Assembly (NCBI GenBank): GCA_902605165.1
Contig: CACLBJ010000002.1
Span: forward strand, 22,794 to 86,793
Reading direction: 5' to 3'
Length of the DNA stretch: 64,000 bases
From: an uncultured SAR86 cluster bacterium
GTDB taxonomy: Bacteria; Pseudomonadota; Gammaproteobacteria; Magnimaribacterales; D2472
The stretch's first letter is position 1, and each line of letters opens with the position of its first letter. The translations under genes were made by a program, and so were the position numbers. Under the pieces are notes generated by a model. The model had not been told where the DNA came from and ran no database searches. It saw only the letters and a program-made list of their open reading frames with translations. This document shows positions 4,692 through 46,338 of the stretch, piece after piece.

Positions 4692-5810
4692 TTGTTATTA
4701 GTTTTCTATTTTAGAAAAACTATTCTTTTTTGGATTATTGGTCGAATGATTAAGCCGACTATGACCTTTGATACCTTTGAGCCACCTCCTAAACCAAATT
4801 ATAATGATCTTAACTCATGGGCAGCTCATCCTGATTACAAAAATGGGCCAGATCAACTCACACCTAATAATGAAAATTTAAATGGTTTAAAAGAAGCTGC
4901 TGTATTTTACGTACATCCAACTGGTTATTTCGGAAAAACATGGAATGCAACAATTGATAAAGATACGTCTCACTATGAAAGAACTGAAGGTATGTTAGCT
5001 GGTCAAGCTTCAGCTTTTAACAATAGTTGCGATATTTATGCTCCTGAATATAGACAGGCAACATTCTTTTCTTTTTTTGATGAAACTGGAGATGGACAAA
5101 AGGCTTTAGCGCGAGCCTATGAAGATGTAGAAAGTGCTTTTTTTGCATTTTTAGATTTAATTGGTGATAAACCTTTTTTTATAGCATCTCATAGCCAAGG
5201 AACACTTCATGCCCAACAGCTGATCTCTAAACATATAGATGGAGCAAAACTCTCTCAAAGAATGATTGCAGCTTATTTGATTGGTTATCCAATTCTTAAA
5301 AGTGACATTAAAAAGCTTTTTAAAGAGATTGAGATATGCAAAAGTCCAGAACAAATTAACTGTGTTATTGCTTGGTGTACAGTAGATGAAATGGCAAATC
5401 TGGAGGGTGAAAGCTGGACTTGGGATCCAAGTGGTTGGAAGAGATTAAATAGAGATGACTTCTTATTTGGAACCAATCCTATTAGCTGGACTATAGACAA
5501 TGAATGGATATCAACAAAAAAAATCAATTCTGTTCTAAATCTTGATATTTGGGATCAATCAATTAAGGGCCTTACAAAAAAAAGACCGTCTGGAGAACCT
5601 ATACAAATATCCTTGTTTAAAAATGCTAATTTCCATGTCCGTCTAAGCAAAAAAGGTCTAGCGGAAGTTAAAGGTGATTTTTTAAAAAGATTTGATTCAG
5701 TGGAGTTTGGTTTAGGCAATCTGCATGTTGTTGACTATAGTTTATTCTGGGGGTCAATTCGTAAGAATGTTAAATTACGATTAAATGAATATTTAAAAAC
5801 AGCAAACTAA
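4692..5810 (+). CDS. DUF3089-like alpha/beta hydrolase-fold protein
   Basis: 372 aa. FIASHSQGTLH is a GxSxG-type nucleophile elbow (HSQG) as in DUF3089 proteins. The start is uncertain: TTG at 4692, ATG at 4746, or an in-frame ATT at 4662 placed 5 nt after a strong GGGAGG at 4651-4656. Confidence 0.55.
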   Translation: MLLVFYFRKTILFWIIGRMIKPTMTFDTFEPPPKPNYNDLNSWAAHPDYKNGPDQLTPNNENLNGLKEAAVFYVHPTGYFGKTWNATIDKDTSHYERTEGMLAGQASAFNNSCDIYAPEYRQATFFSFFDETGDGQKALARAYEDVESAFFAFLDLIGDKPFFIASHSQGTLHAQQLISKHIDGAKLSQRMIAAYLIGYPILKSDIKKLFKEIEICKSPEQINCVIAWCTVDEMANLEGESWTWDPSGWKRLNRDDFLFGTNPISWTIDNEWISTKKINSVLNLDIWDQSIKGLTKKRPSGEPIQISLFKNANFHVRLSKKGLAEVKGDFLKRFDSVEFGLGNLHVVDYSLFWGSIRKNVKLRLNEYLKTAN

Positions 5811-6175
5811 ATTACCTCAATTTGTCCACCATTCTCAACCCACTCTTTGAAACCACCTAAATTAAATACATCTTTATATCCTATGTCCATAAGCGTTTTT
5901 GCAGCCAATGCTGCGCGTGCGCCAGCAGCACAATAAATTAGAATTTTCATTTTTTCTGAATCCTCAACATGATCCTCTGGCCTGAAAATAAATTCCAGTA
6001 ATCCTCTAGGTACATGAATAGCCCCTTTAATTTTTCCAGACTCCCTAAGCTCTTGCCCTTCTCTTACATCTAAAATTATTGTATTTGCATCATTCAGAAT
6101 AGCGCTAGCTTCTTCAAAACTAATTCTTGGAACTAACTCATTTGCTTCATTTAAAAGTTGATTAATATTAGTCAT
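5807..6175 (-). CDS. Single-domain rhodanese-like sulfurtransferase
   Basis: 122 aa with the active-site loop YCAAGARAALAA (CxxGxR). Size and layout are typical of rhodanese/GlpE-like proteins. It overlaps the EamA stop by 8 nt. Confidence 0.8.
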   Translation of the reverse strand: MTNINQLLNEANELVPRISFEEASAILNDANTIILDVREGQELRESGKIKGAIHVPRGLLEFIFRPEDHVEDSEKMKILIYCAAGARAALAAKTLMDIGYKDVFNLGGFKEWVENGGQIEVI

Positions 6176-7019
6176 ATCGCTTATTTGTAAAAATTATTCC
6201 AGTTAATATTAATATCATACCTATTAAAATTTGTAATGTAATTTGCTCTCCAAGAAAAACATAACCCCAGATCACTCCAAAAATAGGTATGAAATATGCA
6301 ACAGTTGCGGTCTTAACTGCACCAACTTTTTCAATTAAGCGAACGTAACCAAGAAAAGCAATGCCTGTTGAAATTACTCCAAGCCAAAGGATTGAGAAAA
6401 TAGTATTATTGGAGGGAAATTGTGAAGGCAAGTTAAAGATGGTCAGCGGTAGAAGGAAAATTGATGCCAGTACTAGAGACCAACCTATTAAGACAATTGT
6501 GTTTGTCTTATATGCAAATTTCTGAATATAGTTTGCAGACAATGCATAACAAAATGCTGCACTTAAACAAAAGATAGTAGCCTTGGTTGAAATATAAATA
6601 TTATCGGGATTTGCTAAAACTACAATACCGAATAAACCAATAAATACTCCCATTATCTGAAAGCGATTTAGCTTTACTTTTAACCAAATTGTAGAAATTA
6701 CAACAGCCATAATTGCAGTTGTCCCATTGAGAATTGACAACATGTTTGAACTTGATTCAAGTGAAGCATATGCAAATAGTGAAAAAGGCAATGCGGTATT
6801 TACAATGCTAAGCACCAAAATATTTTTTAAATTGCTCCTAAAATGCTTTAAATATTTTTTTTGAAGGAGAAAAGGAGTAAATATGAGGCCAGCAACTGCA
6901 AGTCTTATATTAACTAGCGCAATTGGACCTAGCTCAGGTGTTGCAATTTTAATAAACATAAAAGCGCTGCCCCAAACTGCTCCAAGGATAGTAATAAGAA
7001 TCCAGTATTTATTTTCCAT
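6168..7019 (-). CDS. EamA/DMT-family transporter
   Basis: 283 aa and ~10 TM helices. The N-terminal ILGAVWGSAFMFIKIA and the two-repeat architecture are typical of EamA domains. Confidence 0.8.
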   Translation of the reverse strand: MENKYWILITILGAVWGSAFMFIKIATPELGPIALVNIRLAVAGLIFTPFLLQKKYLKHFRSNLKNILVLSIVNTALPFSLFAYASLESSSNMLSILNGTTAIMAVVISTIWLKVKLNRFQIMGVFIGLFGIVVLANPDNIYISTKATIFCLSAAFCYALSANYIQKFAYKTNTIVLIGWSLVLASIFLLPLTIFNLPSQFPSNNTIFSILWLGVISTGIAFLGYVRLIEKVGAVKTATVAYFIPIFGVIWGYVFLGEQITLQILIGMILILTGIIFTNKRYD

Positions 7020-7027
7020 GATAAATT

Positions 7028-7055
7028 AAAAAAAGCCCCCTTAAAAAAGAGGGCT
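7028..7055 (-). terminator. Rho-independent terminator-like hairpin ending 8 nt upstream of the EamA start codon
   Basis: Minus strand reads AGCCCUC-UUUUUUAA-GGGGGCU followed by a U7 run. The stem is 7 bp with one G-U pair. It is followed by AAUUUAUC and then AUG (7019). Confidence 0.6.
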
Positions 7056-7218
7056 AAAATCTGAATATAATCAGACGAAATCAGAATCTAACTTCTGTCA
7101 AAAAGCTGTACCTCCGATTCCTGAATTAAATATAATATTGATAGGACCACCTCCTTGTGAGGGTAATATTAAATACTATAAAGCGGCCCCCATATTAACC
7201 GCGACATAGCGACATCCA
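7028..7218 (-). ncRNA. Candidate ~190-nt structured leader (riboswitch/attenuator) or small RNA; class not recognised
   Basis: Bounded by a promoter-like TTAACA-16nt-TATAAT (7252-7225) and the terminator at 7028-7055. No ATG on the plus strand and no ORF over ~20 codons on either strand. Hairpins CAGAA/TTCTG (7097-7082) and TCUGA/UCAGA (7075-7060) precede the terminator. Confidence 0.3.
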
Positions 7219-7224
7219 GTTTTT

Positions 7225-7252
7225 ATTATATACAGCAAATAGATTTTGTTAA
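7225..7252 (-). promoter_or_regulatory. Sigma70-like promoter (TTAACA -35, 16-nt spacer, TATAAT -10)
   Basis: Read on the minus strand directly after the stop of the 70-aa ORF. AT-rich DNA makes chance hexamers common, so this is tentative. Confidence 0.35.
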
Positions 7253-7260
7253 CAGCTAAA

Positions 7261-7473
7261 TTATAATAATTCTAATTGTTGACAATTGGCAAAACAGAAT
7301 GTGTTTTTAACTGTGGAAATACTATCTCTTGGGAACAAGTAGTTGTTTAGATCTTCTTTGTTTCCATTGAAGTATTTAAAAGCAAGAGTCTTTTCAGCCG
7401 ACTCTTTGTCTACAGCCTCTTCCCACTGGGAGATAATAGTATCTTGGAAATTTAAATTTATTACGTTACTCAT
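7261..7473 (-). CDS. Hypothetical 70-aa protein, predicted LexA-regulated and leaderless
   Basis: A 70-codon open frame in AT-rich DNA, where stop triplets are frequent. No family recognised. The protein is acidic, not hydrophobic, and ends with CFANC. The ATG lies 6 nt after the -10 of a LexA-box promoter and has no SD. Confidence 0.5.
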   Translation of the reverse strand: MSNVINLNFQDTIISQWEEAVDKESAEKTLAFKYFNGNKEDLNNYLFPRDSISTVKNTFCFANCQQLELL

Positions 7474-7479
7474 ATATCA

Positions 7480-7508
7480 AATATACTGTATATTTATACA
7501 GTAGTCAA
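7480..7508 (-). promoter_or_regulatory. Sigma70-like promoter containing the LexA box (TTGACT -35, 17-nt spacer, TATATT -10)
   Basis: Minus strand reads TTGACT-ACTGTATAAATATACAG-TATATT-tgatat-ATG. The operator occupies the whole spacer, and the predicted +1 coincides with the A of the start codon at 7473. Confidence 0.6.
7484..7503 (-). promoter_or_regulatory. LexA (SOS) box
   Basis: TACTGTATATTTATACAGTA matches 19/20 positions of the gammaproteobacterial consensus TACTGTATATATATACAGTA (CTGT-N8-ACAG). Confidence 0.8.
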
Positions 7509-7512
7509 ATAT

Positions 7513-7947
7513 TTATGAGCTGAAGAGATTTTCCATATCCTTAAATGCCTTAATTTCAATAGCATTACCCGATGGATCTCTAAAGAACATTGTCCTTTGT
7601 TCTCCAACTTCTCCTTTAAATCTGATAGTTGGTTCAATGATAAAATCTATTTCTTTATCATTTATTTTCAATAAAAATTCTTCAAATTCTTCTATGGACA
7701 GAACTACTCCAAAATGTGGGACTGGAACCTCTTCACCATCTACAGGATTGGTGATTTGCTCATTGATGCTATCTGAGACGTGACATACGAGCTGATGACC
7801 AAAAAAATCAAAATCTGCCCATTTGTTTGAACTCCTTCCCTCTTTAAGGCCAAGAATATCTCTATAGTAAATGACTGATTTCTCTAAATTAGATACCGGT
7901 ATTGCAAGATGGAATGGGTTTAAATTATCTTTCACGAAAGAAGGCAA
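7513..7947 (-). CDS. VOC (glyoxalase/bleomycin-resistance/dioxygenase) family protein
   Basis: 144 aa. FHLAIPVSNLEKSVIYYRDILGLKEG and the C-terminal FFRDPSGNAIEIK are typical VOC beta-alpha-beta-beta-beta module motifs. Confidence 0.75.
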   Translation of the reverse strand: MPSFVKDNLNPFHLAIPVSNLEKSVIYYRDILGLKEGRSSNKWADFDFFGHQLVCHVSDSINEQITNPVDGEEVPVPHFGVVLSIEEFEEFLLKINDKEIDFIIEPTIRFKGEVGEQRTMFFRDPSGNAIEIKAFKDMENLFSS

Positions 7948-8530
7948 ATATCATAAAAGATAATGTAAATATGGTAACAAGAGTTCCGAGAATATCTCCA
8001 ACAAAAAATCTAATAAACATCTCTGGATTTGATGAAATAGCTCTAAGGGAGTTATAAACATAAAGAGATAAAGAATGCACTGCAGCACTAAAAACGGTAA
8101 CCATTATTATATGTTTATGATTTCTTAAATCTAAATATATAGAATCTTTTGTAAACTTATAAAAAGGTAGAGTTTTTAATTTAAATCCTAATCCAGCCAT
8201 TGCGTAAAGAGCAATAAAAACACAGATAGTTGATAAGAAAGATGTGCCAAGTAAGTCTATAAGTAGCAGATTATTCAATCCATATGCGTCTCCAATAACA
8301 AAGGTGCAAAAGACATGGGCTGCAAAAAGTGCAGGTATGGCTGCAATACCAAAATAACAAATTGTGATCACCCTTGCTGCATGAGGTACATACATGATGC
8401 TGCCATTAAAGCCAGAGGCGGTTTCAGAACTAATGATAAAAAAGATCCAAATTACATATAAAAGATTAAATGATACAAAGGTAGTAATTGATACTTCTAA
8501 AAAATATTTTAGGTCACTGACAGGATTCAA
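7925..8530 (-). CDS. Hypothetical polytopic membrane protein (~6 TM)
   Basis: 201 aa and strongly hydrophobic, with no recognised family. It has a TTG start at 8530, 1 nt after the wHTH gene stop; the start is uncertain. Confidence 0.45.
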   Translation of the reverse strand: MNPVSDLKYFLEVSITTFVSFNLLYVIWIFFIISSETASGFNGSIMYVPHAARVITICYFGIAAIPALFAAHVFCTFVIGDAYGLNNLLLIDLLGTSFLSTICVFIALYAMAGLGFKLKTLPFYKFTKDSIYLDLRNHKHIIMVTVFSAAVHSLSLYVYNSLRAISSNPEMFIRFFVGDILGTLVTIFTLSFMIFAFFRER

Positions 8531-8531
8531 A

Positions 8532-8810
8532 TCAGACCTTTAGTGAAACAATTGATTCACGTTTATCTGACTCTGATTGAAATGCCTCAATAAGATTACT
8601 ATCTTCAAGCTTTCTTAGAATCTTATAAACAGTTGATCTTGATAAACCTGATTCATCTACAATCTTTGAAATGTTACATACATCATTTGATTTCAAAATA
8701 GTATAAAAAACTGCTTGTTCGTTTGGTGTTAGCGAATGCAACTTAAACTCATCCTCAATGTTTCTTAACATTTGAACGAATGTTGTAAGCTGTTTTTTAA
8801 AATCAGGCAT
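8532..8810 (-). CDS. Small winged-helix (MarR/PadR-like) DNA-binding protein, 92 aa
   Basis: ISKIVDESGLSRSTVYKILRKLEDSNLIE is a clear HTH followed by a wing. I start it at ATG 8810 (MPDFKK) because the longer track ORF (to 8945) runs into the tRNA-Ser gene. Confidence 0.6.
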   Translation of the reverse strand: MPDFKKQLTTFVQMLRNIEDEFKLHSLTPNEQAVFYTILKSNDVCNISKIVDESGLSRSTVYKILRKLEDSNLIEAFQSESDKRESIVSLKV

Positions 8811-8861
8811 TTTGTTTCCCTTTATGTCTATATTTTGAACAAAAAAAGTAAAAAATTCAAA

Positions 8862-8951
8862 TGGCGGAGAGACAGGGATTCGAACCCTGGATACGGTTGC
8901 CCATATACTACCTTTCCAAGGTAGCGCGATCGACCACTCTGCCACCTCTCC
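8862..8951 (-). tRNA. tRNA-Ser (anticodon GGA)
   Basis: The reverse complement reads GGAGAGGTGGCAGAGTGGTCGATCGCGCTACCTTGGAAAGGTAGTATATGGGCAACCGTATCCAGGGTTCGAATCCCTGTCTCTCCGCCA. It has a long variable arm, anticodon loop TTGGAAA and an encoded CCA. Confidence 0.95.
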
Positions 8952-8966
8952 AATGGCATAATTTTA

Positions 8967-9452
8967 CTACAAGTTATTATTCTTTATCCAAATGAATTGA
9001 TAAATCAAAGTAATGAAATAAATTATTACAAAAGCAATATGGAAATATAAGATTATTGGATCAAATAAAGAATCAGCAAGAGGTTTACCCACTGGCAATC
9101 TTCTTAAAGTGTCTGCAGCTGCAGGCAAACTATGGAATAAAAAAGTTGAAGTAAAGCATAAAGTATAAAAGTACGTTGAGAAATAGCCCAATATTCTAGT
9201 TCTCTCAACATATACCCCACACAGAACAGCCAGCACAGCTAACACCCCCATAACATGTGCGATACCAAATCCACCTTGGTTATAAATGCCTAAAGCAGAT
9301 ACTGCAGTTATGAATGTTAAAACTAAATATATCCTTGATGGGATTTTATTCCAAGAAAGCAATTTAAAAGAAAAGAAAGAGAAGAAACCTAACAATATTG
9401 AGGCTATTCCTAGAACAGTATGAAACCATCCAAGTAGAGTAATATCAGGCAT
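8967..9452 (-). CDS. Hypothetical membrane protein (~5 TM)
   Basis: 161 aa, hydrophobic, family not recognised. It lies 9 nt downstream of the MerR-family gene and is probably in the same operon. Confidence 0.45.
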   Translation of the reverse strand: MPDITLLGWFHTVLGIASILLGFFSFFSFKLLSWNKIPSRIYLVLTFITAVSALGIYNQGGFGIAHVMGVLAVLAVLCGVYVERTRILGYFSTYFYTLCFTSTFLFHSLPAAADTLRRLPVGKPLADSLFDPIILYFHIAFVIIYFITLIYQFIWIKNNNL

Positions 9453-9461
9453 ATTTAATAA

Positions 9462-9830
9462 TTATAAAAAACAGGATTTTTCTAATTTTTCCTCAATAAT
9501 ATTAAGAGCTTCTGAGAGCTCATCAATCTTTTTATTAATATCTTCTTTGTGAGATAAAAGTAAATCTCGTTGTTCTTTCACTTTCTTATTGCCTTCAAGA
9601 TATAAATATCCCAAGTCTTTTATTTGTTTATTAGTCATGCCGGTCTTCTTAAAGATATAAATTGATTTAAGAATCTGGACATCATATTCGTCATATATCC
9701 TTTTCCCGGATGCAGATCTTTTAACAAAAGGCATTAGTCCAATCTTTTCATAAAATCTTAGTGTGTATGCAGAAAAACCACTGATTTTGGAGATATCAGA
9801 AATAGAAAAAATTTTTTTATTATCTAACAT
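9462..9830 (-). CDS. MerR family transcriptional regulator
   Basis: ISDISKISGFSAYTLRFYEKIGL is the MerR N-terminal HTH signature. A C-terminal coiled coil follows. 122 aa. Confidence 0.85.
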   Translation of the reverse strand: MLDNKKIFSISDISKISGFSAYTLRFYEKIGLMPFVKRSASGKRIYDEYDVQILKSIYIFKKTGMTNKQIKDLGYLYLEGNKKVKEQRDLLLSHKEDINKKIDELSEALNIIEEKLEKSCFL

Positions 9831-33247: not shown

Positions 33248-33279
33248 AAAAAAAAGGAGGCAAAAGCCTCCTTTTTTTT
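33248..33279 (-). terminator. Rho-independent terminator (bidirectional-looking) after the TonB-dependent receptor gene
   Basis: A8-AGGAGGC-AAAA-GCCTCCT-T8, lying 11 nt beyond the receptor stop (33290). Confidence 0.7.
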
Positions 33280-33289
33280 ATTCCTAATC

Positions 33290-46310: not shown

Positions 46311-46338
46311 AAAAAAAAGGGGGCTAAAAAAGCCCCCC
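46311..46338 (-). terminator. Rho-independent terminator after the TonB-dependent receptor gene
   Basis: Minus strand reads GGGGGCU-UUUUU-AGCCCCC followed by U8, ~20 nt after the stop at 46359. Confidence 0.7.

Follow-up and report, generated by a model that had tools for sequence, protein, structure and literature searches.

The 64,000-nucleotide stretch analysed here (hereafter the window; contig CACLBJ010000002.1 of an uncultured SAR86 cluster bacterium) carries on its minus strand a conserved non-coding element that runs from its own promoter through about 190 nt to an intrinsic terminator placed immediately before a gene for an EamA-family transporter. With about as much doubt as confidence, we read this element as a new, SAR86-restricted, cis-acting leader RNA of the attenuator type, which would gate the EamA gene and the rhodanese gene behind it by intrinsic termination. 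The original prediction, made from the letters of the window, had described a structured non-coding promoter-to-terminator unit in this gap, and that much is genuine and conserved: the element is present in at least 42 sequences (36 metagenome contigs and 5 genome loci besides the window), with 86–96% identity to the window within the main of its two clades.

When the minus strand is read from 7500 to 6700, a promoter is followed by about 190 nt without a credible open reading frame (ORF), then by a terminator and finally by the ATG of EamA. The parts of this arrangement are as follows.

7225–7252, minus strand: sigma-70-type promoter of the leader RNA, with TTAACA at 7252–7247, a 16-nt spacer and TATAAT at 7230–7225
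7028–7055, minus strand: intrinsic terminator, AGCCCUCUU-UUUU-AAGGGGGCU followed by a U-run
6168–7019, minus strand: gene for an EamA/DMT-family transporter of 283 aa (Pfam PF00892, E = 6e-41), without a Shine–Dalgarno (SD) motif or a promoter of its own
5807–6175, minus strand: gene for a single-domain rhodanese of 122 aa (Pfam PF00581, E = 6e-17), overlapping the end of EamA by 8 nt

The promoter lies exactly where it had been predicted, matches at 11 of 12 positions and is the top-scoring site within 5500–9000; transcription would start near 7218. Its −35 hexamer is unchanged across the main-clade genome loci, and in the more distant clade described below TATAAT is retained and its distance to the GUC motif is unchanged. 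The predicted terminator, with a U-tract ending 8 nt before the EamA start, was confirmed as well: we count 9 pairs in its G+C-rich stem-loop (7055–7034), the U-run extends to 7028, and 8 nt (7027–7020) separate it from the ATG at 7019. A terminator is found in every homologue that reaches the EamA ATG, at a spacing of 4–12 nt from it (35 homologues). A stringent terminator scan of the 64 kb returned three sites, namely the leader terminator, a gene-end site at 46338–46318 and one site within an ORF, probably spurious. The scan erred on the conservative side, and at least one terminator with A/T flanks, near 33254, escaped it. Because strong terminators are rare in the window, the leader terminator is unlikely to be incidental. 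The minus strand folds with −56.3 kcal/mol (z = −3.4; none of 200 shuffles was equally stable) and the plus strand folds worse by 18 kcal/mol, so that the assignment to the minus strand is sound, and a homologue from the second clade (L004) has a fold z-score of −3.05. As had been noted, the plus strand has no ATG between 7021 and 7252.

Homologues were collected through an EamA protein search of species-representative genomes, which gave 5 loci, all from uncultured SAR86 cluster bacteria, and through a scan of metagenome contigs with a DNA pattern taken from the two most conserved blocks, which gave at least 50 stretches. Among the metagenome stretches listed, 36 proved to be true homologues (match length 58 or 55 nt), and the other 14 of the 50 were set aside as chance matches in GC-rich coding DNA; the same pattern found no match in a collection of viral contigs. 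Every true metagenome homologue that reaches the ATG sits directly upstream of the same EamA start, the EamA gene adjoins the RNA in every locus extending beyond the RNA, the rhodanese gene is syntenic in all loci reaching that far, and the order VOC enzyme, SOS ORF, RNA, EamA, rhodanese is held wherever the contig is long enough. The sequences form two clades, a main one in which EamA is 90–99% identical to the window protein and a second one (L004, L043 and L051) in which it is 67% identical; nothing lay between the two among the matches listed by two protein searches. The set is a shallow one, with two clades and a mean column identity of 90%. Searches with a covariance model of the 142-nt core gave a single copy at each locus (101–168 bits); neither the rest of the window nor 268 kb of SAR86 DNA contained another, the next best match reaching 13 bits with an E-value of about 1.

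The element is under strong constraint. In the main clade, identity to the window over the 199 nt that precede the ATG is 0.86–0.96, as compared with 0.53–0.73 at third positions of EamA codons and 0.93–0.97 at positions 1 and 2, and the non-coding stretch is thus constrained almost like codon positions 1 and 2. Over the distance between the clades, synonymous-type sites are near saturation; the block AAGGAGGUGGUCYUAUCAAUAUU has one change in 23 nt over that distance, and in the block GAGGUUCAGCUUUUUGACA the L004 sequence is the same as the majority sequence of the main clade. The statement in the original prediction that the gap holds no ORF over about 20 codons was only partly right, since mechanical ORFs of 20–23 aa with GTG or TTG starts do occur in it, but none is conserved as coding. 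A GTG frame of 20 aa was discarded as a gene because it gains a stop (TAA) in the L004 clade. Also rejected as genes, for want of codon-position bias, were a 14-codon frame that starts with AUC/AUU, in which 4, 3 and 3 variable columns fall at codon positions 1, 2 and 3, and a UUG mini-ORF in which codons 4–6 and the length vary freely.

A six-helix consensus structure was tested on 35 distinct sequences, in which 93.5% of cells are paired as opposed to 40–50% when the 3' partners are slid by 1–3 columns, and its covariation score is higher than in 500 of 500 column shuffles. From the 5' end, the RNA would comprise these segments.

7211–7214, minus strand: 5'-terminal UGUC, complementary to the invariant GACA at 7099–7096
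7175–7210, minus strand: hairpin P1, an imperfect stem of about 12 bp (A2 columns 15–27 with 38–50)
7150–7163, minus strand: C-rich CCCUC (7163–7159) and the putative small hairpin P3, CCUC/GAGG (7162–7150)
7144–7156, minus strand: box AAGGAGGUG(G/A)UC(C/U), an 11–13-nt, nearly full complement of the 16S rRNA 3' tail
7139–7149, minus strand: putative mini-hairpin P3b, formed by the 3' part of that box
7122–7138, minus strand: A/U-rich stretch AUAUUWUAUUUAAUUCA, unpaired in the tested consensus
7077–7121, minus strand: putative two-part hairpin P4, with the outer stem GGAAUCGGAG/UUCUGAUUUC
7060–7075, minus strand: putative hairpin P5, UCUGA-UUAUAU-UCAGA, in the main clade only

It is through P1 that the leader domain has its covariation support. 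The stem (7210–7198 with 7187–7175) has two-sided changes in 7 of its 13 pairs, and in the L004 clade it is unrelated in sequence (CAAUCUUUCAGU/AUUGAUAGAUUG) and encloses the same loop core, AAnAUGGG; the loop as a whole is conserved and G-rich, AAnAUGGG(G), at 7197–7188. P3 is paired in all 35 sequences, with one one-sided C-to-U change that leaves a U.G pair. The A/U-rich stretch hardly varies in the main clade and is for the most part retained in the L004 clade. P4 includes the second of two GGAGGU boxes (7115–7110), the invariant block GAGGUnCAnCUUUUUGACA and an inner stem-loop, AGCUUUU-UGAC-AGAAGUU, at 7107–7090; its helices are 96–98% paired, with changes that are mostly one-sided and pair-preserving (G.U to A-U or G-C), and at its end pair 118–135, 2 sequences share one double change and 5 lack the pairing. 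P5 is invariant in 32 sequences. Helices P3, P3b, P4 and P5 are thus plausible, being 96–100% paired and, apart from that P4 end pair, either invariant or changed on one side. RNAalifold further pairs columns 11–14 with 126–129, that is, UGUC with the GACA of the P4 loop; these pairs never vary, and UGUC is invariant in both clades apart from one U-to-C change. In L004, L043 and L051, a 17-nt gap (columns 141–157; window 7084–7068, L004 3395–3412) removes the 5' arm and loop of P5 together with the 3' strand of outer P4, and the inner P4 stem of that clade is lengthened to 12 bp. The gap leaves P1, the C-rich/GGAGG segment, inner P4 and the terminator as the conserved core. Two short hairpins had been predicted ahead of the terminator: the one at 7075–7060 is present, and the one at 7097–7082 competes with the longer hairpin at 7121–7077, whose fit to the homologues is no worse. 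In one minimum-free-energy fold the 5' A-run formed a helix with GUUCAGCUUUU; this helix was dropped, as it has uncompensated mismatches and probably lies upstream of the transcription start.

In the reading that we favour, the RNA would start near 7218, fold into P1, P3/P3b and P4 (with P5 in the main clade) and end at the terminator. The claim that there is no room for a separate EamA promoter holds in both clades, and since there is no such space, transcription of EamA and rhodanese must pass the terminator; it would thus be carried out only by polymerases that read through, coming either from the promoter of the RNA or from a LexA-controlled promoter farther upstream. Most transcripts would stop and yield an RNA of about 190 nt, possibly stable and possibly with functions in trans, and the fraction that reads through would probably be set by the conserved upstream domain. 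Here, the partner of the G-rich strands (the P1 loop GGGG(G) and the two GGAGGU boxes) may be either CCCUC or the terminator 5' arm, GCCCUCUU; a small molecule, an ion, a protein and the ribosome are all conceivable as the signal that shifts the balance. Taken together, the forced cis geometry, the strong constraint and the conserved fold make an attenuator-type leader the most economical reading.

Several observations weigh against it. We infer read-through and its regulation from geometry alone, and an unregulated leaky terminator explains this geometry equally well. Further, the antiterminator proposed in the original prediction, GGGGGC paired with GCCCUC, is weakened. The coordinates given for the motifs involved were correct (GGGGGC 7191–7186, CCCUC 7163–7159, AAGGAGG 7156–7150), and GGGGGC is the best upstream partner of the terminator 5' arm in 29 of the 35 sequences, at about −12 kcal/mol and z about −2; however, the pairing is lost without compensation in 6 of the 35 and is absent from the second clade. 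In three main-clade sequences, a change of G38 (window 7187) to A breaks the antiterminator and turns U27.G38 of P1 into U27-A38, so that this position tracks P1 and not the antiterminator, and a truncated RNA of the majority type does not adopt this antiterminator at equilibrium because P1 is more stable. The identity of GGGGGC with the 3' half of the terminator is likewise confined to the window and L034, where the sequence at 7037 (minus strand) is GGGGG with a G.U pair; most other homologues have GAGGG with an A-U pair, and hence GAGGGC.

Other alternative pairings fared no better. Neither AAGGAGG with CCUCUUU, nor the P1-loop GGGG with CCCU, nor UGUC with GACA has compensatory or covariation support, and as switch pairings all three were rejected, being invariant or no better than shuffles; the last two are attractive in that both partners are invariant in both clades and their neighbours vary. 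A bipartite pairing of GGAGG..GCU with AGC-CCUCU, which would join the GAGGU..GCUUUUU block to the terminator arm in both clades, gave z about 0 and was discarded. Many G-rich and C-rich strands could swap partners, and no single alternative pairing is demonstrably conserved. The covariation check proposed earlier found a conserved structure, but clear compensatory change is confined to P1 and no second helix joins it. Finally, the element is restricted to the SAR86 lineage and to a single locus type, unlike most validated riboswitch classes: within the reach of exact-pattern and close-protein scans, all true matches represent one syntenic arrangement.

How the leader might sense its signal, and whether gating is its main role at all, can be judged by comparison with known systems. 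That the element is the aptamer and expression platform of an undescribed SAR86 riboswitch class, directly binding a ligand, is a doubtful possibility on present evidence. The earlier riboswitch reading stands as far as a covarying P1 and the terminator geometry are concerned, the terminator lying between the putative sensor domain and the ORF with no promoter in between; it is weakened as far as it needs a conserved antiterminator, and the exact-pattern and close-protein scans showed no recurrence at a second type of locus. If it were right, the ligand may be a metabolite or ion handled by EamA and rhodanese, such as reactive sulfur, a thiol or another toxic small molecule, and the P1 loop, the C-rich strand and the GGAGGU boxes may form a compact pseudoknotted binding core. 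The absence of a match to known riboswitch cores, judged by eye in the original prediction, was borne out by Rfam 15 (4227 models), which was run at gathering thresholds on the whole window and permissively on the region and its L004 homologue, and gave no match at gathering threshold in the region. The best permissive matches reach 22–26 bits against cut-offs of at least 50, owe these scores to the terminator and are not the same in the window as in L004; AbsR28, sau-6072, Phe_leader and rimP, which appeared inconsistently in this way, were all dismissed. A resemblance to preQ1-I (GGAGGUUCAGC as against the core AGAGGUUCUAGC) was dismissed too, for want of an Rfam match and because of its wrong spacing. 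The literature searched gave no account of this element.

The nearest parallels lie among terminator-type riboswitches. These include the orphan class ykkC subtype 2d, which is linked to EamA transporters (PMC7266159). Like this group, ykkC 2d included, the SAR86 element has a structured leader with its own promoter, a terminator immediately before a transporter gene, G- and C-rich strands able to pair alternatively, and conserved unpaired regions. Unlike ykkC and the other Rfam aptamers, it has no match in sequence or structure to any of them; unlike terminator-type riboswitches in general, it is a row of hairpins and not a demonstrated multi-helix junction, has no demonstrably conserved antiterminator and guards a single locus in two SAR86 clades only. 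An abundant SAR86 non-coding RNA described by Dupont et al. belongs to a glycolysis/pentose-phosphate locus, different from the EamA locus (PMC3358033). The element would work like a terminator-type leader and fits no described RNA family.

Among the rival explanations, the most serious, though clearly less probable to us than a cis-acting leader, is that the element encodes a stand-alone trans-acting small RNA (sRNA), or an sRNA of the 3'-UTR type that belongs to the SOS ORF and has an internal promoter, and that its gene merely abuts EamA; expression of EamA and rhodanese would then depend on leak-through without regulation, or on a weak promoter that overlaps the terminator and yields a leaderless mRNA. 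Enterobacterial sRNAs of the Hfq/ProQ type include 3'-UTR-derived ones with internal promoters (DapZ type), and the element resembles them in its length of about 190 nt, its own promoter, a strong terminator common to the upstream mRNA and conserved single-stranded segments. A near-consensus promoter followed by a strong U-tailed terminator is indeed the standard layout of an sRNA gene; the unpaired A/U-rich segment (7138–7122) and the C-rich CCCUC could be seed regions, and sequence conservation goes beyond what hairpins alone need. No terminator was detected between the SOS ORF and the RNA; the earlier alternatives, a 3' UTR of the SOS transcript or a stand-alone sRNA, are viable and in part true. 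What sets the element apart from Hfq/ProQ sRNAs is that the next gene is promoterless and starts 8 nt past the U-run; apart from any other role of the RNA, its terminator is thus bound to act on EamA transcription in cis. A leaderless start for EamA is conceivable in a genome where leaderless-type promoters are common, and the only −10-like hexamer near the ATG is TTTAAT, 5 nt before it in the main clade. However, the critical A is missing from position 2 of this hexamer, and in the L004 clade no −10-like sequence precedes the EamA ATG (CTTTTTCTTTTCATG), on which grounds such a promoter was rejected. Pairing between the leader and the EamA initiation region is not significant either (z from −1.6 to +0.9). 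A Csr/Rsm-type sponge was rejected, as only two GGA motifs are conserved, those of the GGAGGU boxes, both mostly in stems; the GGA motifs at 7217–7215 and 7121–7119 are lost in L001, L004, L033 and L052.

We regard as distinctly unlikely a ribosome-mediated attenuator, in which SD-like boxes would load ribosomes whose progress along a mini-ORF (7101–7081 and/or 7142–7098) decides whether the terminator forms. Two invariant GGAGGU boxes are present, the first extending to an 11–13-nt complement of the 16S tail whose variants keep wobble pairing; a UUG lies 8 nt past the second box, its frame being open in both clades over 4–6 codons. This UUG is overlapped (UUGA) by the stop of the first frame, and a 3-nt indel in the L004 clade leaves the first frame intact. 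The element thus shares with the trp, phe and his leaders of gammaproteobacterial operons SD-like boxes and a mini-ORF, together with several hairpins and a terminator right in front of the first gene. Unlike these leaders, it has neither regulatory codon runs nor a conserved peptide, and in the main clade its mini-ORF stops about 25 nt short of the terminator stem, too far away for a ribosome to reach the stem. Neither conserved regulatory codons nor a third-position bias were found: substitutions are even across the three positions of the codon (frame 1: 4, 3 and 3), codons 4–6 and the length of the UUG ORF vary freely, and the first frame lacks a canonical start codon. The G/A and C/U variants of the box are equally explained by P3b, and the Phe_leader model remains below threshold in both clades, with terminator-driven scores of 19–24 bits where the cut-off is 55. 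That the element is a small protein-coding gene, or a chance structure in neutral spacer, is scarcely credible. Mechanical ORFs of 20–23 aa do exist in the gap, but the TAA that breaks the GTG frame in the L004 clade and the lack of a third-position excess speak against coding; a neutral spacer is excluded by an identity of 86–96% as against 53–73% at synonymous-type sites, and also by the covariation of P1.

The translation signals in and around the leader deserve separate comment. An SD-like tetramer precedes only 15 of the 53 long ORFs in the window, and several genes have TATAAT 6–8 nt before their ATG, for example at 9452(−), 39774(−), 40043(+), 43278(−) and 56310(+), which suggests that leaderless mRNAs are frequent in this SAR86 genome. 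With SD use so low, the missing SD before EamA is uninformative, and the earlier argument that the gap leaves no room for one carries no weight. Inside the leader, the box at 7156–7144 ties for the longest exact anti-SD complement in the 64 kb and is the longest with a GGAGG core. Its core, GGAGGUG, is invariant, and its variable positions (G/A, C/U) keep wobble to the 16S tail and equally keep P3b. No AUG, GUG or UUG is found 5–9 nt downstream of it, AUC/AUU standing at +7. The box may serve in ribosome binding, in intramolecular pairing with CCCUC or as a protein site. The mini-frames overlap one another, UUG ACA GAA GUN .. UGA at 7101–7081 and the 14-codon AUC/AUU frame at 7142–7098 being joined via UUGA, and both are open in both clades. 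A ribosomal contribution is thus possible, with weak support from these signals.

SAR86 is among the most abundant uncultured bacterial groups of the surface ocean and has a streamlined genome with few regulators, so that RNA-based control is expected to matter; to our knowledge, almost none has been described for this group. A constrained 190-nt leader next to an exporter–sulfurtransferase pair and an SOS gene offers a testable entry to the regulation of export and detoxification in SAR86. If the leader does bind a ligand, it would represent a new riboswitch class and a pointer to the substrate of the DMT transporter; if it does not, it would still be a well-defined terminator-gated operon and possibly the source of an abundant small RNA in ocean metatranscriptomes. 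As to the class of substrate, only generic DMT models matched the transporter, below their cut-offs, and no solved relative was found.

Upstream of the leader, the following genes are found on the same strand.

7261–7508, minus strand: SOS unit, with the promoter TTGACT-17-TATATT (7508–7480), a LexA box and a 70-aa ORF (7473–7261)
7513–7947, minus strand: VOC/FosA-like enzyme
7925–8530, minus strand: unannotated membrane protein of 201 aa

The LexA box, CTGTATAAATATACAG (7501–7486), is of the perfect gammaproteobacterial type, lies inside the promoter TTGACT-17-TATATT and is invariant in 6 of 6 genome loci. The acidic 70-aa ORF shows coding-type evolution, is truncated in the L004 clade and matches nothing in Pfam or NCBIfam. 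It represents an uncharacterised SAR86 SOS gene, and its transcript continues into the leader RNA. The neighbourhood has the appearance of a small stress/detoxification cluster. Farther upstream, we take the ORF at 8532–8945 (minus strand), by its appearance, to resemble a MarR-type regulator, a doubtful call since it overlaps an Rfam tRNA match at 8865–8951, and the ORF at 9462–9830 (minus strand), judged by eye only, presumably resembles a MerR-type regulator. Of these cluster genes, only the VOC gene is still linked to the RNA locus in the second clade.

Elsewhere in the window, the gene-end terminator at 46338–46318 (minus strand) has the form GGGGGGCT-TTTTT-AGCCCCCT and lies 20 nt past an ORF of 1004 aa, and a further strong terminator at about 33254–33285 is a bidirectional hairpin, AAGGAGGC-AAAA-GCCTCCTT, with A- and T-runs on its flanks.

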